Below, piece after piece: positions 4,247 to 21,665 of a stretch of DNA of 64,000 nt (its first letter is position 1; each line of letters opens with the position of its first letter). The notes beneath the pieces were generated by a model, which worked only from the letters and a program-made list of their open reading frames with translations, was not told the DNA's origin and searched no databases. This DNA is from an uncultured delta proteobacterium (GTDB taxonomy: Bacteria; Myxococcota_A; Polyangia; Fen-1088), in contig CAVYGB010000002.1 of NCBI GenBank assembly GCA_963767925.1, forward strand, positions 832,001 to 896,000, given 5' to 3'. The position numbers and the translations under genes were made by a program.

Positions 4247-4278
4247 TCCGCCCTGCGCGGCGGCGATCGCCGTGGCTG

Positions 4279-4460
4279 GTCGGAGCCGGAGGAGCGGAGT
4301 CGGAGCCGGAGGAGCGGAGCCGGAGGAGCGGAGTCGGAGCCGGAGGAGCGGAGCCGGAGGAGCGGAGTCGGAGCCGGAGGAGCGGAGCCGGAGGAGCGGA
4401 GTCGGAGCCGGAGGAGCGGAGCCGGAGCCGGAGCGGGGAGGAGCGGAGCCGGAGCGGGAG
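4279..4460. repeat. Purine-rich degenerate microsatellite (GGAGCC/GGAGC/GGA units)
   Basis: Visible tandem GGAGCGGAGCCGGA units. Confidence 0.85.
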
Positions 4461-4727
4461 GCGGGCTTCGTGCTTTTCGGCGGGGGGGAGGGGGGGATGT
4501 CCCTCCCGGGGGACGGCCGCCTACGCGCCCGGCCGGGGGGACCTCACGGGCCTGCGGCGACGCTGGCGCTGCGAGGACCGGGGTGGCCTATCGATCGCGC
4601 GCGGGCCTCGACTCGCGCCTTGGCGACCGCCGCAGACGGCGGTGCAGGCGCTCCACGCCCCCGGGAGAGACATCCCCACCTCCCCCCCGCCCGGGGTGGC
4701 CTACATTTTCTTCGCCCCAGGGCATTG

Positions 4728-5293: not shown

Positions 5294-5304
5294 GGCGCGG
5301 GAGT

Positions 5305-5469
5305 CTAGTCCCCTGGAACGGTGATTTCTTGCATATCTCGCCGGTCCTCTTCGTCCCTGGCTGCGTTGCTCGTCGGTTAAATGCGCCAGGTATTCGCCCT
5401 CCTGGCGCCTTGCCAGGAACGAAGATGCCTCGCCGACACATGCAAGACTTCACCTTCCAGGGGCCCTGG
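5305..5469. mobile_element. About 165-bp MITE-like interspersed repeat, copy 1 (right end decayed)
   Basis: Near-identical to 21501-21665; starts CTAGTCCCCTGGAACGGTGA. Confidence 0.85.
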
Positions 5470-6929: not shown

Positions 6930-7820
6930 TCAGCGGGTGAGGAGGTCTTCGAAGAATTTGGTGGCGCGGGGGTCCTTGGATTGGCCGAGCCAGAACATGG
7001 CTTGCTTGCGGACCTGGGGGTGGCGGTCTTCCCTGGCCAGGCGGATGAGGGTCGGGAGGGCTTCGGGGTCCTGGGTCTGGGTGAGGGCGAAGGCGGCGTG
7101 CTCGCGGACCTTTTCGCTGGGGTCCTCGCGGGCGGCGCGGGCGACCGCCAGGTAGCCGGGGCGGCCGCGGGTTGTGGCGAGCCAGAAGAGGGCGGACTTG
7201 CGAGTGGGCTCGGACGGAGACGTGGCGGCGAGGCCGAGGCGTTCCAGGGCTTGCTGGGCTTCGGCGCCGGCGTGGAGGGCGAGGGCCTGGATGGCGGGGT
7301 CGGCGGTGGAGCGGCGGCCGGCGGGCTCGGTGGCGGTGGCCTGGCGGAGGAGGAGGGCCACGCTCTCGGTCGGTTTGACCGACGTCAGCCAGTGGAAGGG
7401 GAGACCGCCGGCATCGAGGGGGCAGTCGTTGCCGTAGGCCCGGACCTTGATCACCTGGGTGGCCTCCACCCGCAAGAGGACCGCGACGTGGGAGGGGCCT
7501 TCCAGCTTGACGGGGCCCTGGGGGCGGGGGGGCGGGGTCTTGCGGTCGCCTTCTAGGCCGCAGCCGCGGCCCTCGTCGTTCCAGCAACAGGACTGGGCGT
7601 CGCCGGGGAGCTTGGGGACCGCCCAGCCGATCCAGGCGGAGCCGGGCTGGCGGGCCATCGCCGCCTTGACCGCCGCCTCCAGGCCGCCGGCGGCGGAGGT
7701 GATGGCGACCTGGGCGTTCTGGATGGCGGGTTGCTCGGCCGGCGGGGGCGCGGCGGAGGGGGCCACCGCCAGGGGGATCAGCGCGAAGGAGTGGGCCAGC
7801 AAGGCGCTCTGGAGAATCAT
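6930..7820 (-). CDS. Exported HEAT-repeat protein
   Basis: Signal-like N-terminus; ALFWLA, VREHAAFAL, VRKQAMFWLGQSKDPRA HEAT repeats. Confidence 0.8.
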   Translation of the reverse strand: MILQSALLAHSFALIPLAVAPSAAPPPAEQPAIQNAQVAITSAAGGLEAAVKAAMARQPGSAWIGWAVPKLPGDAQSCCWNDEGRGCGLEGDRKTPPPRPQGPVKLEGPSHVAVLLRVEATQVIKVRAYGNDCPLDAGGLPFHWLTSVKPTESVALLLRQATATEPAGRRSTADPAIQALALHAGAEAQQALERLGLAATSPSEPTRKSALFWLATTRGRPGYLAVARAAREDPSEKVREHAAFALTQTQDPEALPTLIRLAREDRHPQVRKQAMFWLGQSKDPRATKFFEDLLTR

Positions 7821-7909
7821 GGGTCGAGCCGCTCCATCGGATGGTTGATCGCTCCGAGCGCACGCACGTTCGTCAGGCGGGAGACCGCGGCCTTCTCGGG
7901 GCGAGTCAT
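7817..7909 (-). CDS. 30-aa mini-ORF, degenerate duplicate of the upstream gene's C-terminus
   Basis: MTRPEKAAVSRLTNVRALGAINHPMERLDP; ATGA overlaps with both flanking genes. Confidence 0.45.
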   Translation of the reverse strand: MTRPEKAAVSRLTNVRALGAINHPMERLDP

Positions 7910-9252
7910 TTGTTGAGCAGCTCCATGAGGTAGCTGGTGGCTTCGGGGCTGCGCATGTTCGTCAGGCGGGAGACGGCGGCCTTCTTGAGCTCGGGGTTGG
8001 TCTCCTTGCGGGTGAGGGCGACGAGCTGCTGGGCGTTGCCCTGGATGAAGAGGGCCTCGATCACGCGCTCGCGGACGCGGGGGTCGGGGGTGCTGCCGTA
8101 GATGGCGACGAGGGCCTCGCCGGCGGCCGGGACCTTGCTGGTGCCGAGGTGCTGGATCGCGCGCTCGCGCAGCTCGGGGTCCTTCTCGGTGCGGGCGACC
8201 TCGATCAGCTTGCTCGTGTTGCCGCCGACGAACAGGGCTTGCAGGATGCGCTTGCGGGTTTCGAGCGACGTCTCGGCGGGGTAGAGCTGGGCCAGCTCGG
8301 CGCTGGCCCCCATGGTGCCGAGAAACATGATGGCCTGGCCGCGCAGCTCCTCGTTCTTCTCCGAGCGGGCGATGGCCAGCAGGCGGTCGCGCTCGCCGCT
8401 CACCATGAAGCTCTGGAGCACCTGCCGCTTGATGGCCACGTCGTTCGACGATCCGTAGATGTCGGCCAGCACTTGCCGGTTCTCCTTGCCCTCGTAGAGG
8501 CCCAGGCTGCGCACGGCGTGGAGCTGCAGGTCGGGGTTGGCGCCCCCCCTGGCGACCTTGACCACCACCTCGCGCGCCCGGGGCGAGCCGCTCTGGCTCA
8601 GCACGAACAGGGCCCGCTCGCGCAGCTTGGGTGCGCCGGGCTTCTGCAGCAGCTTCTCGAGCAGCGGCACCGACCGCTCCGGCTCGCTCTGCATGAGGGC
8701 GTTGATGGCCATCAGCTTCATCTCGTCGTCGCTGGCGTCTTCGGGGTCGAGGGGCTTGCCGCCGGCCTGGCCGATCTCGACCCGCATCACCCTGGCGTCG
8801 TTGAGCCAGCGGCTGGCGGGGTGTGTCTTGCCGAGCTCGTCGAGGGCGGCCAGCGCCTCGGGGCGCCGCCCCAGCTTGGCCAGGGCGTAGGCCTTCCAGT
8901 ACAGCGCCCCGTCGGCGCGGGCCTCGCCGGCCGCCACCACCTCGTCGAAGCTGGCGATGGCATCGTTCCACTCGCGCCGGTCGAGCGCGCGCGATCCCCG
9001 CTCGTAACGTCGCTCGCCCCGGTCGCGGCCGCGCAGGCCCCGCTCGCGGGCCCGCTCGACCCGCTCCCGGGCCCGCTCGACCCGCTCCCGGGCCCGCTCC
9101 GCGGTCTCGCGCCCCCGCTCCCGGCCACCGCGCTCGGCCGCCGCCGCGGGGGTCGGACCCACCGGGGCCTGGGCCGCGGTCTGCGCGCAGGCCAGGCTGG
9201 GGACGATCAGCAGGGTGAGGATCATGGTCATCTCGGCGCTCGCTTTCGACAT
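7906..9252 (-). CDS. Exported TPR + HEAT-repeat protein
   Basis: Signal peptide, charged linker, ADGALYWKAYAL TPR, multiple HEAT repeats. Confidence 0.82.
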   Translation of the reverse strand: MSKASAEMTMILTLLIVPSLACAQTAAQAPVGPTPAAAAERGGRERGRETAERARERVERARERVERARERGLRGRDRGERRYERGSRALDRREWNDAIASFDEVVAAGEARADGALYWKAYALAKLGRRPEALAALDELGKTHPASRWLNDARVMRVEIGQAGGKPLDPEDASDDEMKLMAINALMQSEPERSVPLLEKLLQKPGAPKLRERALFVLSQSGSPRAREVVVKVARGGANPDLQLHAVRSLGLYEGKENRQVLADIYGSSNDVAIKRQVLQSFMVSGERDRLLAIARSEKNEELRGQAIMFLGTMGASAELAQLYPAETSLETRKRILQALFVGGNTSKLIEVARTEKDPELRERAIQHLGTSKVPAAGEALVAIYGSTPDPRVRERVIEALFIQGNAQQLVALTRKETNPELKKAAVSRLTNMRSPEATSYLMELLNK

Positions 9253-9289
9253 GGGGTCACTTCCATCTTTCGGGTCATCGGAAGGGCTC

Positions 9290-10177
9290 TCAGATGGGCT
9301 CTCGGATGGGCTCCAGGATCTCTTGGCGGCCCCGGCCAGACGCCGCCGGCGGCCGGCTGCCGAGCTCGCGCAGCCGCGCCTCCAGCACCCGGACCTTGAA
9401 GACGAGCTGCTGGTCGTCCAGCCGCTCGCGCAAGCTGGCGAGCTGCCCCGAGGACAGCTCCTCCGGGCCCCGGGCCACGTCGAGCAGCACCCGCTCGAGG
9501 TCCTCCAGCACGGAGGCCAGGGCGAGCTGCCCCTGCCGGGCGGCGGTGAGCCGGTACAGGCGGTTGTCGTCGAGCAGGCTGGCGGCCCGCGCCTTGTCGT
9601 CGAGCATGTCGACGTCGTCGCCCGGCTCCGCCGGAGCGGCGGGGGCCAGCGCCGCGGCGGTCGGCTCGGCCCGGTTCAGGATCTCGAGGAGGATCCGGCC
9701 GGACTGGGCCAGGTGGTCGCTGAGCGCAGCGGCCAGGATCCGCTCGCCGGCTGCCCCGGGTGGGGTCGCGCCGTCCACCATCACCACCGGCGGACGCGAC
9801 GAGCGCCCGGCAAAGAACGCGCCCACCAGCAGGACGCCCAGGGCCCCGGCCAGCGCCAGCCGCCGGGGCGCCAGCAGCCCCCGCAGCGCCGCCCCCGCCC
9901 CCCGCCACCCGCTCCGCCAGGCGCCCGGCCGGGTGGCCAGGGCCGGCTCGACCGCCGCCAGCTTGTCCCACACCCGCTCGCCGTAGCCGGCGTCCCGCTC
10001 CGGCACCGGCCAGGCGTCGACAAGGGCGAGGGCCGCCTTCAACCGCTCGAGCTCGACCCGGCAGGCGGGGCAGGCGTCGAGGTGCTGGCGGGTGCTGGCG
10101 GCGTCGGCGTCGTCGCCGTAGTAGTGCCAGACCAGGGTCTCCTCCCCGAGGTGCCCGCTGCTCACGCCTTGGCTCAT
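9290..10177 (-). CDS. Membrane anti-sigma factor (zf-HC2/ZAS)
   Basis: HxxxCxxC (HLDACPAC), one TM helix; ATGA overlap with the sigma gene. Confidence 0.85.
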   Translation of the reverse strand: MSQGVSSGHLGEETLVWHYYGDDADAASTRQHLDACPACRVELERLKAALALVDAWPVPERDAGYGERVWDKLAAVEPALATRPGAWRSGWRGAGAALRGLLAPRRLALAGALGVLLVGAFFAGRSSRPPVVMVDGATPPGAAGERILAAALSDHLAQSGRILLEILNRAEPTAAALAPAAPAEPGDDVDMLDDKARAASLLDDNRLYRLTAARQGQLALASVLEDLERVLLDVARGPEELSSGQLASLRERLDDQQLVFKVRVLEARLRELGSRPPAASGRGRQEILEPIREPI

Positions 10178-10746
10178 TTGGCCGCCCCTTCCATCTCCTG
10201 CAGCGCCCGCCGCAGCTTCTGCACCGCCCGGAACACCGCCTGCTTGGCGGCAGTCGCCGAGGTCTGCAAGACCGCGCTGATCTCCTCGATGCCCCGGCCC
10301 TCGAAGTGGCGCAGGGTGAAGGCCACCCGCTCCTGTGCGCTCAGCGCGTCGAGGGCGGCGTCGATGGTCCGCTGCATCTGGCCGTTCATGGCCGTCCGCT
10401 CCGGGCCCGGCGCGGGCGAGGTGGCCGCCGCCTCCGCGCGGGCGCTGCTCGTCTCCTCCGCGCGCCCGGGGGCCTCCGCCTGCCGGCGGCGGTTGAGGTC
10501 GATCGCGCAGTTGGTGGCGATGCGGTAGAGCCAGCTCCCCACCACCGCCCGCTCCTCGAAGCGATCCAGGTTCCGGTAAGCCCGCAAGAAGGTCTCCTGC
10601 ACGATGTCCTCCGCATCCGCCTCGCTGCCCGTGAGGCGAAAGGCCAGGCGGAACACCCGCCGGCTGTGGCGTTCGACCAGCAGCCGGAAGGCGTCCCCGT
10701 CGCCGGTACGCGCCAGCGCGACCGCGGCAGCGTCGCCGATCTCCAT
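10174..10746 (-). CDS. ECF RNA polymerase sigma-70 factor
   Basis: DAEDIVQETFLRAY, WLYRIATN region 2; region 4 HTH. Alternative GTG start at 10752. Confidence 0.95.
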   Translation of the reverse strand: MEIGDAAAVALARTGDGDAFRLLVERHSRRVFRLAFRLTGSEADAEDIVQETFLRAYRNLDRFEERAVVGSWLYRIATNCAIDLNRRRQAEAPGRAEETSSARAEAAATSPAPGPERTAMNGQMQRTIDAALDALSAQERVAFTLRHFEGRGIEEISAVLQTSATAAKQAVFRAVQKLRRALQEMEGAAK

Positions 10747-10755
10747 GCCCACCGT

Positions 10756-10855: not shown

Positions 10856-13582
10856 CTACGCCAGGGTGACGGGGGAGCTGGCTTCTTCGAAGCGGACGTG
10901 GAGGGGGGGATCGGAGGAGGCGGGGGGGGCGCGTTCCGGCGGGTGGGAGGCCTCGCTGATGGTCGGGAGGCGCAGGCGGAAGATCGTCTCCACCTGGGGG
11001 ATCGAGCTGACCTCGACCGAGCCGCCGATGCGGGCCACCACGGTCTGCACGATGGCCAGGCCCAGGCCCCGGCCGCTGCCGGTCTTGGTCGTGTAAAACG
11101 GGGAGAAGATGCGCGACACGCTGTCGGCGCGGATGCCGGGGCCGTCGTCGCTGACCTCGAGCACCACCTCCTGATCGGCGGCCCGGGTCCGCACCCAGAC
11201 CTTCCCGCGCGGCCCCACCGCCTCGAGCGCGTTCTGCACCAGGCTCTGGATCACCTGGCTCAGCTCCTCGGGGATGGCCCGCACGGCCAGGCCGCCCGCC
11301 CGCAGGTCGAGGCGCACGGGGGTCTCCACCTCGGTGGCGGGCGCCACCAGCCCGGTCACCTCGGCCACCGCCCGGTCGAAGGTCACGTCGGCCGGCTCGG
11401 TGGGGAAGCCCACCCGGGCGTAGTGGCGCAGCAACTCGACCACCTTCTCGATGCGTACCACGCCCCGCCCGGCGCTCTCCACCATCCGGTCGATGCGGTG
11501 GCGGGCCCGGTCGATCACCGCCCCCCGCTGGGGATCGATCCCCACCGGCAGGGCCTCGAGCAGCTTCTCCAGGTTCTCGGAGATGACGAGGTTGGCGTTC
11601 TTGATGAAGTTGAGGGGGTTGTAGATCTCGTGGGCCAGACCGGCGCTGATGGTCTCCAGCCCCTCGGCGTGGGCCCGCATGACGTCCTGGATGTGGCGCC
11701 CCTGCTTCGACAGGATCTGGCGCATCACCGCCTCCAGCTCGCGCGGGCTGAAGGGCTTACCGAGGTAGACGTCGGCCCCCGCCTCGCGGGCCAGCAGCCG
11801 ATCGGCGATCTGGCTGCGGGCGCTGAGCATGATCACCGGGATCTCGGCGAGCTGAGGGTCGGCGCGCAGGCGCCTGACCATGGTGACCCCGTCCATCTCC
11901 GGCATCATGTAGTCGGTGACGATGACGTCGGGGCGCTCGCGCTGGGCCAGCTCCAGCCCCTGGCGCCCGTCGACGGCGGCGAAGATGCGGTAGCGGTCGC
12001 GCAGCTGCAGGTTGATGAGCTCGAGGATCTCGACGTTGTCCTCGACGACCAGGATGCGGGCCCCGTTGACCGGGGGGTCGTCGCCCCGGCTCACCAGCCG
12101 CCGGTCGGTGACCTGCTCGATCTCGGCGAAGCGGTAGTCGAGCTGCCGCTGCAGCTTCTGGGCCCACTCCCGCGGCTCGCCGTCGTCCTGGCGCTTGAGG
12201 CGGGCGGCGGGCGCCTCCGGCCCCCGCAGGCGGCGCTCGCGGGCCTCGGGCGGTAAATTGTCGCCCTCGGGCAGGTGGACCACGAAGCGGCTGCCCCGCC
12301 CGGGCTTGCTGCTCACCGTGACCCGCCCCCCGTGCAGCTCGACGATTTCCTTGGCGTAGGCCAGGCCGATGCCGGTGCCCCCGTAGCGGCGGGTGATGGA
12401 GGTGTCCTCCTGGCTGAACCGCTCGAAGGTGCGCTCGACGTATTCGGCGGGGATGCCGATGCCCGAGTCCTGGACGGCGATGCGCACCTCCGCCCCGACC
12501 ACCTCCATCGTGAGCGACACCCCCCCGGTCTCGGTGAACTTGAGGGCGTTCGACAGCAGGTTGACGATCACCCGCTCCAGCTTCTCGACGTCGACGTGCA
12601 GGTTGGCCGAGGCCCCCTTGATGTCGAGGTCGAGGCTGAGGTTCTTGCGGGCGGCCAGCGGGCGAGCGTAGTCCAGCACGTCCTCGAGCATCTGCCGCAG
12701 GTCGGTGCGCTCGGGCCGCAGCCGCAGGAACCCCTCCTCCAGCTTGGCCAGGTCGAGCAGATCGTTGATCAGCTTCAGCAGGCGGATGCCGTTGCGCCGG
12801 TTGGCCTCCAGGTACGAGCGCTGGGTCGAGGTGAGGGCCCCGCAGTCACCGGAGAGGATGTTCTCGACCGGCGCCAGGATCATCGTGATGGGGGTGCGCA
12901 GCTCGTGGGTGATGTTGGAGAAGAACTGCGACTTGAGGCGGTCGAGGTGCTTGAGCTGCTGGTGGGCGTCCTCCAGCCCCTGTTTTGTCTCCTCGATGGT
13001 GATCTGGCTGCGCACCTGCTCGCGCGCCCCGTGGAACATGACGATCTGCCCCACGCTGGCGATGAGGGCGGTCGAGATCAGGAAGAACAGGTTGGAGACC
13101 GCGGTGAGGCTGATGCCCTCCCCGTGCAGCAGCAGATTGGGCAGCAGGAAGCTGGCCACGATGCTGGCGTGGGTGGCCAGCACCAGCCGCGGCTTCCAGG
13201 CGAACAGCAGGCCGGTAGCCACGATGGCCAGGGTGAGCCCGGCGTAATAGGGCGAGGCCAGCCCCCCGAGAAACAGGGTCATCACGCTGACCCCCAGGGC
13301 GCACACCAGCATGTAGCCGGCCGAGAGGAGGTCCCCCCGGCGGGCGTAGAGCGGGTGGCCCACCAGGGCGAACATGATCAAGGTGGCCAGGGTGACGAGG
13401 GCCCGGGTGCCCCAGAGCACCGGCCAGGCCGAGCGGGGGGCCAGCAGGTAGTCCAGCACGCCGAAGGCGGGGTAGAGCGACAGCACGATCCAGAGCAACG
13501 TGCGGGTGCCCCGCTGGTTGTGGGTGAGCAGCCACTGCCGCCAGCGCTCCCGGAAGTTCTCGGTCTCGGGTCCGGCCGTCAT
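10856..13582 (-). CDS. Membrane hybrid kinase TM-HisKA-HATPase-REC-HisKA-HATPase (PhcS+PhcR-like fusion)
   Basis: About 5-6 TM helices; THELRTP, NLLSNALKF, GGTGIGL; REC VTDYMMPEMDG; second AHEIYNP, NALEA, DDGPGI, GRGLGL. Confidence 0.9.
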   Translation of the reverse strand: MTAGPETENFRERWRQWLLTHNQRGTRTLLWIVLSLYPAFGVLDYLLAPRSAWPVLWGTRALVTLATLIMFALVGHPLYARRGDLLSAGYMLVCALGVSVMTLFLGGLASPYYAGLTLAIVATGLLFAWKPRLVLATHASIVASFLLPNLLLHGEGISLTAVSNLFFLISTALIASVGQIVMFHGAREQVRSQITIEETKQGLEDAHQQLKHLDRLKSQFFSNITHELRTPITMILAPVENILSGDCGALTSTQRSYLEANRRNGIRLLKLINDLLDLAKLEEGFLRLRPERTDLRQMLEDVLDYARPLAARKNLSLDLDIKGASANLHVDVEKLERVIVNLLSNALKFTETGGVSLTMEVVGAEVRIAVQDSGIGIPAEYVERTFERFSQEDTSITRRYGGTGIGLAYAKEIVELHGGRVTVSSKPGRGSRFVVHLPEGDNLPPEARERRLRGPEAPAARLKRQDDGEPREWAQKLQRQLDYRFAEIEQVTDRRLVSRGDDPPVNGARILVVEDNVEILELINLQLRDRYRIFAAVDGRQGLELAQRERPDVIVTDYMMPEMDGVTMVRRLRADPQLAEIPVIMLSARSQIADRLLAREAGADVYLGKPFSPRELEAVMRQILSKQGRHIQDVMRAHAEGLETISAGLAHEIYNPLNFIKNANLVISENLEKLLEALPVGIDPQRGAVIDRARHRIDRMVESAGRGVVRIEKVVELLRHYARVGFPTEPADVTFDRAVAEVTGLVAPATEVETPVRLDLRAGGLAVRAIPEELSQVIQSLVQNALEAVGPRGKVWVRTRAADQEVVLEVSDDGPGIRADSVSRIFSPFYTTKTGSGRGLGLAIVQTVVARIGGSVEVSSIPQVETIFRLRLPTISEASHPPERAPPASSDPPLHVRFEEASSPVTLA

Positions 13583-15120
13583 GCGTCCCTGGTGATGCAA
13601 ACGAACGGATTGGTCCCGGTTTCTTCCTCGAGGATCGTGCAGCGCGAGCGGCTGCCCTCCATCCGGGCGAAATCGAGCATCTCCTCGTGGGTGCGATAGG
13701 TGAGGTGCCAGTCGAGGTGGAACTCCATGAACCAGCGCCCGGGATTCCAGGGGACCATGTTGCCGATCAACATGGTGCCGCCCTCGACAAGCGACTGCTC
13801 CAGGTTGGCGCACAGGCGCGAGGCGGTGGTGAAGTTGAGGTAGTCGAACAACCCACAGGCGAAGATGAAGTCGAAGGGGCCACAGTCGTCGAAGATCTCC
13901 GGCTCGCGCAGCAGCCGTTTGATGGTGTCGTAGCGGTAGAAGATCTTCACCTGCTGGGGCCAGCGCGAGGCCACCACCCGGTTGAGGCGTCCGTAGGCGT
14001 AGTCGAGGGCCTGCCTCTCCTGGTCGAACAGCACGACGTGCAGCCGCCCGCCGAGGTCGTGGGCCTCCGAGAGCAGCTCGTAGACCTCCTGGGCGGGGCC
14101 CGCCGCCACCGAGAGGACCCGGAAGGGGGGGCCGGCCCCGTGTTCGGCCAGGCGCTCGGCGATCTGCCGGCGCACGACGTTCTTGCGCGCGCGCACCGCC
14201 CGGGCCGGCGCGGTCTCGAGGAAGGCCAGGCTCAGCGCCTTGGCGAACAGGGTGGGCCCGGCGAACGAGTCCTCGTAGACGTGGCGCATGACCCGGAAGT
14301 CCCCCGGGTAGCCGAGCGGCTTGTGCAGGGCCCGGTGCATCCAGGGCGACTGCATGAGCAGCTCCTGGATCTGGCGCTGGGAGAACTCCTTGAGGGCCTG
14401 GAGGTCGGCGGGGGGGACGCCCCGGATGGCGGCGTCGATCTGCTCGGAGTAGCGGACGATGGGGACCACCAGCTCGCGGCGCAGGCTCTCGATGAGGGCG
14501 GTGCGGGCGGGCGACTTCATCTCGCCGTGCAGGACGTGGAAGGGCAGGTGGGTCTCCAGGCTGGTGAGCTGCTTCTCGGCGTCGAGCAGGAACAGGCGCA
14601 GCTCGGAGACCAGCGACTTGAAGCGTTCGTAGCCGGAGACGAACCAGGGCCGGGCGGTGAGGCTCACCCGGGGGGCCTCGTCGCGGGCCCAGGCCTTTAT
14701 GTCGCGCAGGACGAGCACGTCCTCGATGCTCACCGGCGCGTCGGTGAGAGCGACACCGACAAGTCGCCCCTGATCGGCGTCGCGCACGGAGATGACCCGG
14801 GCGTCGCCCCGGTAGGCCTCGTGGCCGCCCAGCTCGACGACGATGCGGTCGATGCGGCTGCCGGCCTCGAACGTCAGCTCGGGCGGGCAGCGGAAGGCGA
14901 GCCCGTTCTGGGAGATGTCGATCAGGGCGCAGGCGTGGCTCACGCCCCGGTCGGTGACCCGGGCGACCGGCTCGTCGAGCCCCAGCTCGGCGGCCCGGTA
15001 GCGATCGGGACGAAAAAAGATCTCGCGCCCCTGCCCGCCCTCGCGCTCCTCGTAGCCCACCGGCGCAGCGACGGGCGGGGCGGGGGCGTCGCGGCTCACC
15101 GCCTTGCCGAGCGTCGTCAC
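13579..15120 (-). CDS. PilZ-like domain + class I SAM methyltransferase, PhcB-like
   Basis: DISQNG PilZ-type motif; KPLGYPGDF, VLSVAAGPAQE, FDFIFACGLFDYL, MEFHLDWHLTYR. GTG start after GGAGG (ATG at 15150 is an alternative); ATGA overlap with the kinase. Confidence 0.8.
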   Translation of the reverse strand: MTTLGKAVSRDAPAPPVAAPVGYEEREGGQGREIFFRPDRYRAAELGLDEPVARVTDRGVSHACALIDISQNGLAFRCPPELTFEAGSRIDRIVVELGGHEAYRGDARVISVRDADQGRLVGVALTDAPVSIEDVLVLRDIKAWARDEAPRVSLTARPWFVSGYERFKSLVSELRLFLLDAEKQLTSLETHLPFHVLHGEMKSPARTALIESLRRELVVPIVRYSEQIDAAIRGVPPADLQALKEFSQRQIQELLMQSPWMHRALHKPLGYPGDFRVMRHVYEDSFAGPTLFAKALSLAFLETAPARAVRARKNVVRRQIAERLAEHGAGPPFRVLSVAAGPAQEVYELLSEAHDLGGRLHVVLFDQERQALDYAYGRLNRVVASRWPQQVKIFYRYDTIKRLLREPEIFDDCGPFDFIFACGLFDYLNFTTASRLCANLEQSLVEGGTMLIGNMVPWNPGRWFMEFHLDWHLTYRTHEEMLDFARMEGSRSRCTILEEETGTNPFVCITRDA

Positions 15121-15163
15121 TTCCGCCTCCACCGACCGCGTGACCCGCATCGACCGGCGGCTC

Positions 15164-15179
15164 TGCGACCCACGTGCCA
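15164..15179 (-). promoter_or_regulatory. Putative sigma54 -24/-12 promoter of the methyltransferase-kinase operon
   Basis: TGGCACGTGGGTCGCA: GG-N10-GC with consensus TGGCACG. Confidence 0.65.
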
Positions 15180-15298
15180 GCGACCTCACGGCGCAGGCGC
15201 CCGCCAACCTGCGATCGGGGGTGTGACTGCCGGGTGACCGCCAGGTGCCAGCAGGGTGCCCGGACCCCAGGGCTGTGGTGTGGCTGCCCGACGTCGGG

Positions 15299-16228
15299 TC
15301 AGGCCCCGTTGCCGGACTTCTCCGGCGGAACGGGATCGCGGCTGGTCCCTTCGGGATCGCCGCGCACGACCTGCACCAGAACGCAGGTGATGTTGTCGTC
15401 GCCGCCGCGCTCGTTGGCCATCTCGACCAGGGTGGGGCCCACCTCCTCGGTGGGGCGGCCGCCCAGCACCTCGGCGATCTCGTCCTCGCCGAGATAGTTC
15501 GACAGCCCGTCCGAGCAGAGCAGCAGGCGATCGTCGGGCTCGACCGCCAGGGTGAAGAGATCTGGTTCGACGGTCGGTTCGAAACCGACCGAGCGCGTGA
15601 TGATGTTGCGGAAGCGCGACACCATCGCGTCCTCCGGCTCGATCAGCCCGGCCCGGATCTGCTCCTGGATCCAGGAGTGATCCTCGGTGAGCTGGCGGAC
15701 CCGCCCGCCCCGGAAGAGGTAAGCGCGCGAATCGCCGACGTGGCAGATGCTGACCTCGCCGCTGTGAAAAAACGCGGCCGTCAGGGTCGTGCCCATCCCC
15801 GATCGCTCGGGCTGGCCCTGGGCTTCGCTGTAGATGGCGATGGCCGCTTTGCGCACGGCCTCCCGCATCGCCATCGCCGCCGGGTGGACGCCGCCGCCCG
15901 GGCGCGTGTCGGCCTGCTTCTGCAGGGGGTCGGTCAGGGGGTGGGGATCCCACTCCGGGTTGACCGCGGCCCCCCCGGGGCCGCCGCCCGGCGGGAGCGG
16001 CAGGCGGGCGGGGGCCGCGCTCTGATCGACGCGCAGGCCGGGGGCCCTGGTCTCGATCTCCCGCTCGAGGATCTCCACAGCCAGGCGGCTGGCCCGCTCA
16101 CCGCCGAGGTGGCCGCCCATGCCGTCGGCCACGGCGTACAGCTCGAGCGCGGGATTGCAGAGGTAGCTGTCCTCGTTGTGGTCGCGCTTGAGCCCGACGT
16201 CGGTCGTCGCCCAGGCCTGGGTCTTCAT
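15299..16228 (-). CDS. PP2C-family Ser/Thr phosphatase (Stp1-like)
   Basis: TDVGLKRDHNED, VADGMGGH, GMGTT, HVGDSRAY, LLCSDGL, GGDDNIT; Pro/Gly-rich insertion. Confidence 0.95.
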   Translation of the reverse strand: MKTQAWATTDVGLKRDHNEDSYLCNPALELYAVADGMGGHLGGERASRLAVEILEREIETRAPGLRVDQSAAPARLPLPPGGGPGGAAVNPEWDPHPLTDPLQKQADTRPGGGVHPAAMAMREAVRKAAIAIYSEAQGQPERSGMGTTLTAAFFHSGEVSICHVGDSRAYLFRGGRVRQLTEDHSWIQEQIRAGLIEPEDAMVSRFRNIITRSVGFEPTVEPDLFTLAVEPDDRLLLCSDGLSNYLGEDEIAEVLGGRPTEEVGPTLVEMANERGGDDNITCVLVQVVRGDPEGTSRDPVPPEKSGNGA

Positions 16229-16259
16229 CGCCGAAGGGCCGCCTTTCTCACCACCGCGG

Positions 16260-18182
16260 TCACGGCTGGGGCGGGGCCTCGGGCCCGCCCCTCTCCCTCT
16301 TTGTCGTGCGGCTTTCAATGATGAAGTCTACCCTATTGCCGCCGGCCCCTGCCCCCACCGCCTTGAGACGCGACGCAGACACCGCCTTGCCCACCAGGAA
16401 GGCCTGGATGGCGTCGGCCCGGGCCTGGGTATGTGCGCTCGCCGTGCCATCGGCCCGGACCTCCATGCGCAAGACTCCAATCTCGCGGTGTCCCTTGAGC
16501 ACCAGGGCCACCAGGTTGAGCAGCGTCTGGGCCCCCGGAGTCAGCACCGGCTGAGCGGCGGGCCCGCTGAAGGTGATCCGCTCGCGCATATCGATCGTGT
16601 TCTCGGTGAGGCGCACGAGCTCTGCGCCCGGGTCGGGGCAGCCGTCGTCGTCGCGGTTGCCGTTGAGGGTCTCGGGCTGGGCCGGGCAGCGATCGGAGGC
16701 GTCGTCGAACCCGTCCCGGTCGTTGTCCGGATCGGCGCAGCCGTCGGTGTCGTCGACGCCGTCGGCGTCTTCGGCCTCGTTGGGGCACTCGTCGAAGTTG
16801 TCGGGGATCGAGTCGTTGTCGTTGTCGATGTCGGGGCAGCCGTCGTCGTCCTCGAACCCGTCCCGGTCCTCGGGCTCGTCGGCGCACTTGTCGGCGGCGT
16901 CGGAGATCCCGTCACCGTCGGCGTCTTCGCTCGAGGAGGGGCAGCCGTCACGGGGGCGCTTGCCCCGCCCGTCCTCGGCGGCGTTGGGGCAGGCGTCGTT
17001 GAGGTCGGCGATGCCGTCCGAGTCGTTGTCCCCCTCGGGGCAGCCGTCGCCGTCCTGGTAGGAATCGACGTCCTCGGCGTCGTTGGGGCACTGGTCCTGG
17101 GGGTCGAGCAGGCCGTCGCCGTCGTTGTCCAGCTCCGGGCAGCCGTCCTCGTCGCGGTGGCCGTCCCGGTCCTCGGGCGAGCCCGGGCAGCGGTCCTCGA
17201 AGTCGTAGACCCCGTCCCGATCGTTGTCGATGAAGCTCGGCGACCAGCCCAGGGCGAGGAAGGCCCGGAACTTGGGCGAGCCGATGCCCCGCACCAGCCC
17301 CAGCCCGCCCCCCAGAGTCAGGCTGACCAGCTTGGGCAGGGCCACCCGCATGCCGGCGTCCACCTCGACCGGGTTGGCGTCGACGTAGCGCTTGGCGAAG
17401 TCAGACAGGCCGCTGCGCCCGAGCACCTCGGCCAGCAGCGACACGCCCCGGTGCACCCGGTAGTCGACCGCCGCCGCGTACAGGAGCTGGTGGCCCACCT
17501 GGGCGGCGAAGTTGGCCGACGACTGCCGCATGAGCACGCCCACCATGGCCCCCGCCCGGGCCTGGCCCAGGCGCAGCTCGCTCAGCGCGCGCAGCCGGCC
17601 GGTCACGTTGCGGTCGCCGGTGAACTTGCGCTGGTTGCCGGTGGGCAAGGTGATGCCGGGAGCGATGGCGAAGGCCAGCTCCCGGCTGGGGCCGAGCTGG
17701 CCGAGCTTGTACTTCGCCTCAAGCCGCAGGTCACCGGGGCTGGCGCCCGAGAGGGTGTAGCCGCTGGCCACCCCCATCTCGGTGAAGTCCTGCCCGTCCT
17801 GGAAGACGGAGACCGGCAGGGCGAACCCGAGCTGCAGCCGGTCGGCGATGCCGATGGCCGCCGCCAGCTCGGTGGTGACCTGGTCGCGCACCACCTCGAC
17901 CGCGGCCTCCATCTGGTTTTCGCCCTGGACGGTGTAGAGCGTGAAGGGGTTGCGCTGGTAGCTGGTGCTGAGGGCCAGGGAGAACTGCAGGTGGCCCGGG
18001 ACCTCGGCGGCGTCGAGGGTGAAGTAGGGCTGCGGCCCGATGGCCGACTGCCAGAGCTGGACCTCGAACGAACGATCGGTGCGCGGCGCCTGGGCCGACA
18101 CAACGGCGGGCAGCGCGAGCGCGACCAGCAGCGAGCCGGCCAGCGCCCCCCACCTCTTATCCGAAGTCCGCCCGGGTGACAT
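16260..18182 (-). CDS. Outer-membrane barrel + thrombospondin type-3 repeats + OmpA-like domain (TraB-like architecture)
   Basis: Signal peptide, amphipathic strands, many DxDxDG..D.CP repeats, C-terminal ARADAIQAFL...NRVDF. Confidence 0.85.
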   Translation of the reverse strand: MSPGRTSDKRWGALAGSLLVALALPAVVSAQAPRTDRSFEVQLWQSAIGPQPYFTLDAAEVPGHLQFSLALSTSYQRNPFTLYTVQGENQMEAAVEVVRDQVTTELAAAIGIADRLQLGFALPVSVFQDGQDFTEMGVASGYTLSGASPGDLRLEAKYKLGQLGPSRELAFAIAPGITLPTGNQRKFTGDRNVTGRLRALSELRLGQARAGAMVGVLMRQSSANFAAQVGHQLLYAAAVDYRVHRGVSLLAEVLGRSGLSDFAKRYVDANPVEVDAGMRVALPKLVSLTLGGGLGLVRGIGSPKFRAFLALGWSPSFIDNDRDGVYDFEDRCPGSPEDRDGHRDEDGCPELDNDGDGLLDPQDQCPNDAEDVDSYQDGDGCPEGDNDSDGIADLNDACPNAAEDGRGKRPRDGCPSSSEDADGDGISDAADKCADEPEDRDGFEDDDGCPDIDNDNDSIPDNFDECPNEAEDADGVDDTDGCADPDNDRDGFDDASDRCPAQPETLNGNRDDDGCPDPGAELVRLTENTIDMRERITFSGPAAQPVLTPGAQTLLNLVALVLKGHREIGVLRMEVRADGTASAHTQARADAIQAFLVGKAVSASRLKAVGAGAGGNRVDFIIESRTTKRERGGPEAPPQP

Positions 18183-21369: not shown

Positions 21370-21497
21370 GCCCCTTCACCCTTCGCTCGCGCCGCGCAGC
21401 GGGGCGAGGCGAACGGCAGCGGGGAGCCCGCGCGGAAGGTGATCGGTGCAACCAGCCGCTGTTCGCCCTCGCCCCGCGCAGCGGGGAGAGGGAGGGG
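21370..21497. repeat. Inverted pair of REP-like palindromes
   Basis: CGCGCAGCGGGGCGAGGCGAAC followed by GTTCGCCCTCGCCCCGCGCAGCGGGGAGAGGG. Confidence 0.6.
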
Positions 21498-21500
21498 CGA

Positions 21501-21665
21501 CTAGTCCCCTGGAACGGTGATTTCTTGCATATCTCGCCGGTCCTCTTCGTCCCTGGCTGCGTTGCTCGTCGGTTACATACGCCCGGTATTCGCCCTCCTC
21601 GCGCCTTGCCAGGAACGAAGATGCCTCGCCGACATATGCAAGCCTTCACCGTTCCAGGGGACTAG
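21501..21665. mobile_element. 165-bp MITE-like interspersed repeat, copy 2 (intact ends)
   Basis: Perfect 20-bp terminal inverted repeat CTAGTCCCCTGGAACGGTGA/TCACCGTTCCAGGGGACTAG, extending imperfectly inward. Confidence 0.88.

Follow-up and report, generated by a model that had tools for sequence, protein, structure and literature searches.

A PhcB-family methyltransferase and a PhcS-type kinase sensor swapped as one block: a probable fatty-acid methyl-ester signalling pair in Myxococcota

Results and discussion

Here we report that a 64,000-nucleotide stretch of DNA from an uncultured delta proteobacterium of the Myxococcota (assembly GCA_963767925.1, contig CAVYGB010000002.1, positions 832,001 to 896,000; hereafter the window) carries a methyltransferase gene of the PhcB family (gene 1), directly followed by a hybrid kinase gene with a PhcS-type membrane sensor (gene 2), and that enzyme and sensor are swapped together as one block between close relatives. 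In Ralstonia, PhcB makes the methyl ester of 3-hydroxymyristic or 3-hydroxypalmitic acid (3-OH MAME or PAME) and PhcS senses it, as reported in PMC11298618 and PMC7154725. Sequence comparison leads us to propose that the two window genes probably produce and perceive a fatty-acid methyl-ester autoinducer specific to a strain group, a reading to which we assign a probability of about 0.72. The features on which the argument draws are these (TM, transmembrane region; HK, histidine kinase; REC, receiver; HMM, hidden Markov model; aa, amino acids):

13579..15150, minus strand: gene 1, PhcB-family S-adenosylmethionine (SAM) methyltransferase, 523 aa (open frame)
14716..15015, minus strand: PilZ-type barrel of gene 1, residues ~46-145 (Pfam PF07238, motifs, hhalign)
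13582..14649, minus strand: helical and class I methyltransferase domains of gene 1, residues ~168-523 (model, fold searches)
10856..13582, minus strand: gene 2, hybrid kinase TM-HK1-REC-HK2, 908 aa (open frame and Pfam)
13013..13582, minus strand: PhcS-type membrane sensor of gene 2, residues 1 to ~190, 5-6 helices (HMM, hhalign)
12266..12934, minus strand: HK1, His226, HELRTP type, not PhcS-like (Pfam, scores, tree)
11726..12055, minus strand: internal receiver, Asp557 and Lys609, not PhcR/PhcQ-like (Pfam, ranking, tree)
10958..11665, minus strand: HK2, His651, HEIYNP, of a broad kinase class common with PhcS (scores, tree)
12952..15382, no strand: exchanged specificity block, comprising promoter, gene 1 and the gene 2 sensor to ~residue 210 (blastn and protein identity against the congener G001)

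Exchange of enzyme and sensor as one block

The congener G001 keeps the gene order of the window, with 81% identity in OmpA, 72% in PP2C and 69% in the extracytoplasmic function (ECF) sigma factor. DNA identity is 78% across window positions 10961-12951 and 81% across 15383-18094; the stretch separating them gives no blastn match. The proteins follow the same division: the enzymes are 31% and the sensors 29% identical, while HK1, REC and HK2 reach 71-73%, and at kinase residue 210/211 an identity of 13% gives way to one of 70%. Because the G001 enzyme belongs to a different subfamily clade in the tree, this points to replacement rather than fast drift. In genus g92, two loci (L072 and L054) share flanking DNA at 93-94% and kinase domains at 95-99%, with enzymes at 44% and sensors at 33%; the 2.2-kb gap between the matching flanks opens near codon 33 of gene 1 and closes near codon 208 of gene 2. 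An exchange of the same type is seen in genus g131.

Among 23 pairs of loci with kinase cassettes at least 78% identical, which come from three genera and are not independent, nine are high in both enzyme and sensor (at least 80%), 14 are low in both (enzyme at most 57%, sensor at most 43%) and none is mixed. Enzyme and sensor tree distances show a partial correlation of 0.61 (0 of 2000 permutations) over 46 of 50 loci, four having been dropped for want of the anchor motif, and the enzyme tree suits the sensor alignment much better than does the kinase tree (log-likelihood differences of 71 versus 737). The recurrent break at the sensor-kinase junction is a stronger sign of block exchange than this co-variation, some of which is linkage.

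Ralstonia itself provides a parallel. Across ten other Ralstonia loci (one of 11 was dropped, as a contig end cuts it), the identities of PhcB and of the PhcS sensor sort into two classes (~75/60 and 65/46%), and the kinases and PhcR stay at 80-89%. PhcB and PhcS have been reported to split strains by signal type, with PhcR and PhcQ tracking phylotype (PMC8578825), and balancing selection on phcB and phcS has been described (PMC6580516).

Gene 1 is a member of the PhcB family

The proposal in the initial annotation that gene 1 is related to Ralstonia PhcB is borne out. Gene 1 is a full-length homolog of R. syzygii PhcB (28% identity over 442 aa, E 8e-48), the two are each other's sole match (the Ralstonia-side search scored one of four candidates), and they have in common KPLGY-GD, GP(A)-E, GLFDYL and W-L-YR. 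The motifs first noted in gene 1 were located at residues 78 (DISQNG), 277 (KPLGYPGDF), 433 (GLFDYL) and 479 (LDWHLTYR). The reference operon, R. syzygii locus L154, was confirmed by residues R22, L161 and R154, reported for GMI1000 in PMC6989110, and by three published primers (PMC8578825 supplement).

Database labels on the homologs agree: among the 120 best, 41 carry the JGI label '3-hydroxypalmitic acid methyl ester biosynthesis', which we take to be KEGG's name for phcB. When 84 sequences are placed in a midpoint-rooted tree, a separate clade holds the betaproteobacterial PhcBs (support 99.9). Judged by these comparisons, gene 1 is a PhcB family member but not a close ortholog.

Two fold searches, which barely covered the PilZ part, returned mostly small-molecule methyltransferases as top matches; CheR was not among the matches listed, though it may yet be a relative. 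PDB entry 3OCJ from Bordetella parapertussis, titled a possible exported protein and with no activity stated in that title, shows 18% identity (300 residues) and leaves the PilZ part of gene 1 uncovered. No family in NCBIfam and no sequence relative in the PDB was found for gene 1. Two homologs (L044:6987-9533 and protein P0052) bear an extra class I methyltransferase fused at the N-terminus, giving 848 aa.

The PilZ-type barrel and its counterpart in PhcB

Gene 1 had been described as a PilZ-like barrel plus a methyltransferase, and it does contain both: Pfam PF07238 (PilZ) matches residues 63-143 above the cut-off (E 4e-7), and the barrel is modelled with six strands at a predicted local distance difference test score (pLDDT) above 90. 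The barrel is, however, no addition to PhcB, whose N-terminus aligns with it (hhalign 94%, E 1.4e-7, 88 columns). That region of PhcB is without both PilZ motifs, and the alignment redefines it as a degenerate PilZ-like barrel, for which literature searches turned up no published description.

The motif [D/N]xSxxG is present in 119/119 close homologs of gene 1, in 34/40 members of group A and 18/20 of group B, and in 0/79 PhcBs; gene 1 retains a recognisable PilZ domain with DxSxxG, unlike PhcB, and this PilZ is fused to its methyltransferase, an enzyme other than CheR. Gene 1 carries DISQNG intact but FRPDRY where RxxxR is expected. RxxxR occurs in just 2/119 close homologs (FRPxRY stands there instead), in 13/20 distant group B members and in the enzyme of G001. 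Two PilZ surveys tie binding of cyclic di-GMP (c-di-GMP) to both motifs (bioRxiv 10.1101/2020.02.11.943704 and 10.1101/814665), and RxxxR is treated as essential in bioRxiv PilZ survey text. Since gene 1 lacks RxxxR, its binding of and gating by c-di-GMP are doubtful; for the RxxxR-bearing other subfamily, including the G001 version, such gating is plausible.

A hybrid kinase with a PhcS-type sensor

The domain order first assigned to gene 2 (TM-HisKA-HATPase-REC-HisKA-HATPase) agrees with Pfam, H-box and hydropathy alike, and the key residues are intact (His226, Asp557, Lys609 and His651). Pfam finds HisKA, two HATPase stretches and one receiver; the second HisKA comes from the HEIYNP H-box and alignment, without a separate Pfam stretch. 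Hydropathy gives five clear membrane segments, with a sixth likely at ~110-130. A profile of 75 betaproteobacterial PhcS sensors, run on all six-frame open reading frames, has gene 2 as its sole match in the genome (E 1.5e-5), and hhalign aligns the two sensors over 179 columns (99.5%, E 1e-22), in line with the PhcS-like character originally suspected for the membrane part.

A stand-alone receiver-kinase of ~390 aa lies beside the enzyme-sensor pair in 41/60 homologous loci. These partners were picked by a PhcR score filter, which makes the choice partly circular; of the full receiver-kinase neighbours, however, the filter removed just two, both of them pieces of split hybrids. Their best relative in the window's genome is unlinked (L183:3819-5057, that is G000:C8:3177818-3179056), with an HN H-box, a weak or degenerate HATPase and a receiver in the PhcR/PhcQ clade, and is the best candidate for an output partner of gene 2.

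A helix-turn-helix and receiver gene stands directly upstream of the enzyme at L082:2396-2977 (Pfam run on L082), and similar receivers occur in L083, L089 and L098; in that subfamily it is a possible DNA-binding output.

The same genome holds a second possible signal module at L185:4250-11906 (G000:C2:338249-345905). It includes a 772-aa PilZ protein, for whose C-terminal part Atlas points weakly to FeeM/GNAT acyltransferases (scores up to 0.82), as well as a fatty acid desaturase, a tryptophan-halogenase-family gene, a sigma54-like site at C2:345881 and a paralogous TM-HK-REC-HK kinase that is 58-65% identical to gene 2 in its kinase domains, with an unrelated sensor. A third copy of the HK1-REC-HK2 cassette (L184:5076-7754, G000:C2:143075-145753; 59-64%) has a non-PhcS sensor and lies, with other genes, between two genes that are probably ftsW and murG of the cell-division cluster.

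Distribution and conservation of the pair

Homologs of gene 1 turn up in 92 of the 401 Myxococcota genomes sampled (5/36 from its own family), nearly always with a PhcS-type sensor alongside in the loci fetched, to be set against a survey of 6,937 Pseudomonadota genomes in which the phc cluster is called restricted within Betaproteobacteria (PMC10653808). For the synteny check we used 60 homologous regions, chosen among the best matches that were full-length and lay on contigs of sufficient length, with short matches left out. A PhcS profile finds the sensor beside the enzyme in 56 of them, so that the expected conservation of the enzyme-kinase pairing is upheld. All four kinase domains are present in 49; the remainder comprise four loci cut by the end of the stretch, three split, two with a shorter TM-HK-REC form, one with insertions and one partnerless (L087). 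Seven further regions added a kinase in two full-length members and none in one full-length and four short or cut members.

A cyclopropane-fatty-acid-synthase gene is part of the operon in 4/60 loci (L088, L091, L093 and L096), between enzyme and kinase in three of these four, and an MMPL transporter in 1/60 (L096); both fit a lipid product and would be compatible with one. No acyl-supply cassette is conserved among the neighbour-gene clusters of the 60 loci.

On a Paraburkholderia plasmid (L002), a cyclopropane-fatty-acid-synthase gene is found ~1 kb upstream. No cultured myxobacterial carrier is named among the best 120 matches of either search. A scan of metagenome contigs with the Ralstonia-operon primers hit an unrelated gene by chance (L102), and this match was discarded.

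Proposed mechanism and alternatives

From homology, domain order, synteny and block exchange we infer a working order for substrate, product, sensing, phosphotransfer and output. Gene 1 would use SAM to methylate the carboxyl of a fatty-acyl substrate, probably drawn from general lipid metabolism because the locus has no conserved supply gene; acyl-ACP (acyl carrier protein) is the substrate of PhcB. The ester would diffuse out and bind the 5-6-helix sensor of gene 2, and the ligand-bound sensor would set the activity of HK1 (His226). HK1 may then phosphorylate Asp557 of the internal receiver, which would gate HK2 (His651), and HK2 would signal to a regulator encoded elsewhere, for which the C8 receiver-kinase is the candidate. 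Swapping enzyme and sensor with the kinase cassette kept would change the signal and leave the output wiring as it was.

Several observations weigh against this reading. Gene 1 lies inside a Myxococcota subfamily (support 99.2) and outside the PhcB clade proper in the 84-sequence tree; that position, together with an identity to PhcB of just 28%, means that its substrate may differ. Gene 1 belongs to a large family, with 6,592 representatives at E<=0.001, whose profile comes near significance with PDB methyltransferases only in weak matches to CheR (E 0.02). For some members no kinase lies close by (L087, L188 and the four short or cut L189-L192). The approximately unbiased (AU) test rejects both the enzyme and the kinase tree for the sensor alignment, and since enzyme and sensor are adjacent in the DNA, joint transfer alone would yield some co-variation. 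No output regulator is encoded inside the locus, and the orphan C8 partner is linked to the pair by phylogeny only, its kinase not grouping with that of PhcR.

Enzyme and sensor could be a cognate pair and the cue still something other than a fatty-acid methyl-ester density signal: gene 1 might methylate another small molecule or a membrane lipid, or make a C-methylated product, and the kinase might read that product as an intracellular or environmental cue. We consider this unlikely, as the two halves have homologs in the Ralstonia synthase and receptor, discrete types exchanged inside a genus suit signals between cells, and four loci contain lipid-handling genes. We give considerably less credence to gene 1 being an adaptation enzyme, a CheR-like protein carboxyl methyltransferase with the partner kinase as its substrate, under PilZ control like that of MapZ on CheR1. 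The weak Pfam CheR match of gene 1 (E 0.013) and weak profile matches to CheR structures, including 5XLY (E 0.019), speak for it, and an enzyme-substrate pairing would co-vary too; yet PhcB, the reported maker of 3-OH MAME/PAME (PMC11298618), gives an equally weak CheR match, most of the kinase portion that co-varies is membrane-embedded, and the fold neighbours are mainly small-molecule enzymes.

The initial annotation had further read gene 2 as a fusion of PhcS and PhcR, which would make the two genes a complete phcBSR operon. The order TM-HK-REC-HK does equal S then R, and residues 500-880 of gene 2 align with PhcR (23%, E 5e-15), but the same residues match PhcS better (E 6e-17). Among the 201 domain matches that a PhcR-receiver profile has in the genome, the receiver of gene 2 ranks 112th, and in the tree it lies apart from the PhcR/PhcQ receiver clade, which instead takes in 41 stand-alone partner receivers (support 0.97) and seven other receivers of the genome. 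The PhcR kinase groups with neither HK1 nor HK2. The PhcS kinase scores higher against HK2 than against HK1 in every intact hybrid listed and shares a mixed clade with the whole set of 50 HK2 domains, with HK1 elsewhere; the H-boxes agree, being of HELRTP type in HK1 and of HEVNNP/HEINNP type in PhcS, like HK2. On the receiver ranking, the two trees and the H-boxes we dropped the fusion, an origin for gene 2 that now seems most improbable. A PhcS with an inserted HK1-REC module may be another origin for gene 2: HK2 shares the kinase class of PhcS, but ranks only 44th of 174 domain matches to a PhcS-kinase profile in the genome and is not its sister in the tree.

The methyl-ester reading allows a broader conjecture, offered with the odds well against it: about one-fifth of Myxococcota genomes may encode an undescribed lipid-ester autoinducer with swappable specificity groups, its synthase gated by c-di-GMP through a PilZ domain kept as a remnant in Ralstonia PhcB. 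Were this true, predatory myxobacteria would gain a chemically defined signal for kin versus neighbour, tied to the second messenger of motile and sessile life.

Locus layout, promoter and neighbouring genes

The two minus-strand frames are open and coupled by an ATGA overlap at 13582-13579, as the two-gene operon originally described. Translation of gene 1 may in fact begin at GTG 15120, behind GGAGG, rather than at ATG 15150. Upstream lies one further feature:

15164..15179, minus strand: sigma54-like -24/-12 site TGGCACGTGGGTCGCA, inside the exchanged block

The site has one mismatch to the consensus, and a sigma54-like promoter is plausible here. The sigma54-type promoter reported at the outset is not kept across relatives: a strict match occurs in 1/60 homologous loci and none in G001, and the idea of conserved sigma54 control was dropped on that count. 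Sites of the same kind number 28 in the 9.3 Mb genome, several of them before a start codon.

Directly downstream on the same strand, window positions 6930-10752 hold an ECF sigma factor, a probable anti-sigma factor and two HEAT-repeat genes, all kept in G001. An interspersed repeat of ~160 bp occurs at 5299-5463 and 21495-21660 and has 38 genome matches of at least 100 bp, with identities up to 94-97%; a second repeat family lies near 4465-4715 (13 matches), and a short tandem array near 4275-4450.

Comparison with known systems

The homologs already carry database labels; a Phc-type pair in Myxococcota, its form as a hybrid-kinase variant, and block exchange appear to be new. No paper on a myxobacterial Phc case was found in the open literature, the reach of our search ending at subscription papers and bioRxiv supplements. 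In the text available from PMC13220807, phc is mentioned solely for Ralstonia, and density signalling in myxobacteria is described in PMC7862692 as a quorum-like A-signal and a solo acyl-homoserine lactone (AHL) synthase. The natural swaps, such as window versus G001, are ready-made cognate and non-cognate pairs, so that E. coli can serve to test what the signal is and how specific, with no need to culture the host.

Compared with Ralstonia, the pair resembles Phc in its apparent working but departs from it in architecture. PhcS is a TM-HK protein, whereas the gene 2 kinase is TM-HK-REC-HK. Unlike the Ralstonia operon, the window locus has no phcR or phcQ, and the PhcQ C-terminal domain has no match in the window's genome, which is 84% complete. 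The output of Ralstonia Phc is the LysR regulator PhcA; the window's genome has 17 matches to the LysR substrate domain above the cut-off. As in Ralstonia, a full-length PhcB homolog is followed directly by a kinase with a homologous membrane sensor, and synthase and sensor vary together, while the downstream signalling domains do not.

By function alone, the agr system of Staphylococcus aureus is also analogous, as a polymorphic signal locus under balancing selection that is named as the analogue of phcBSR in PMC6580516. Its signal is a peptide, unlike that proposed for the window pair, and there is no sequence homology. The variable block of agr takes in the signal genes along with the kinase's sensor half.

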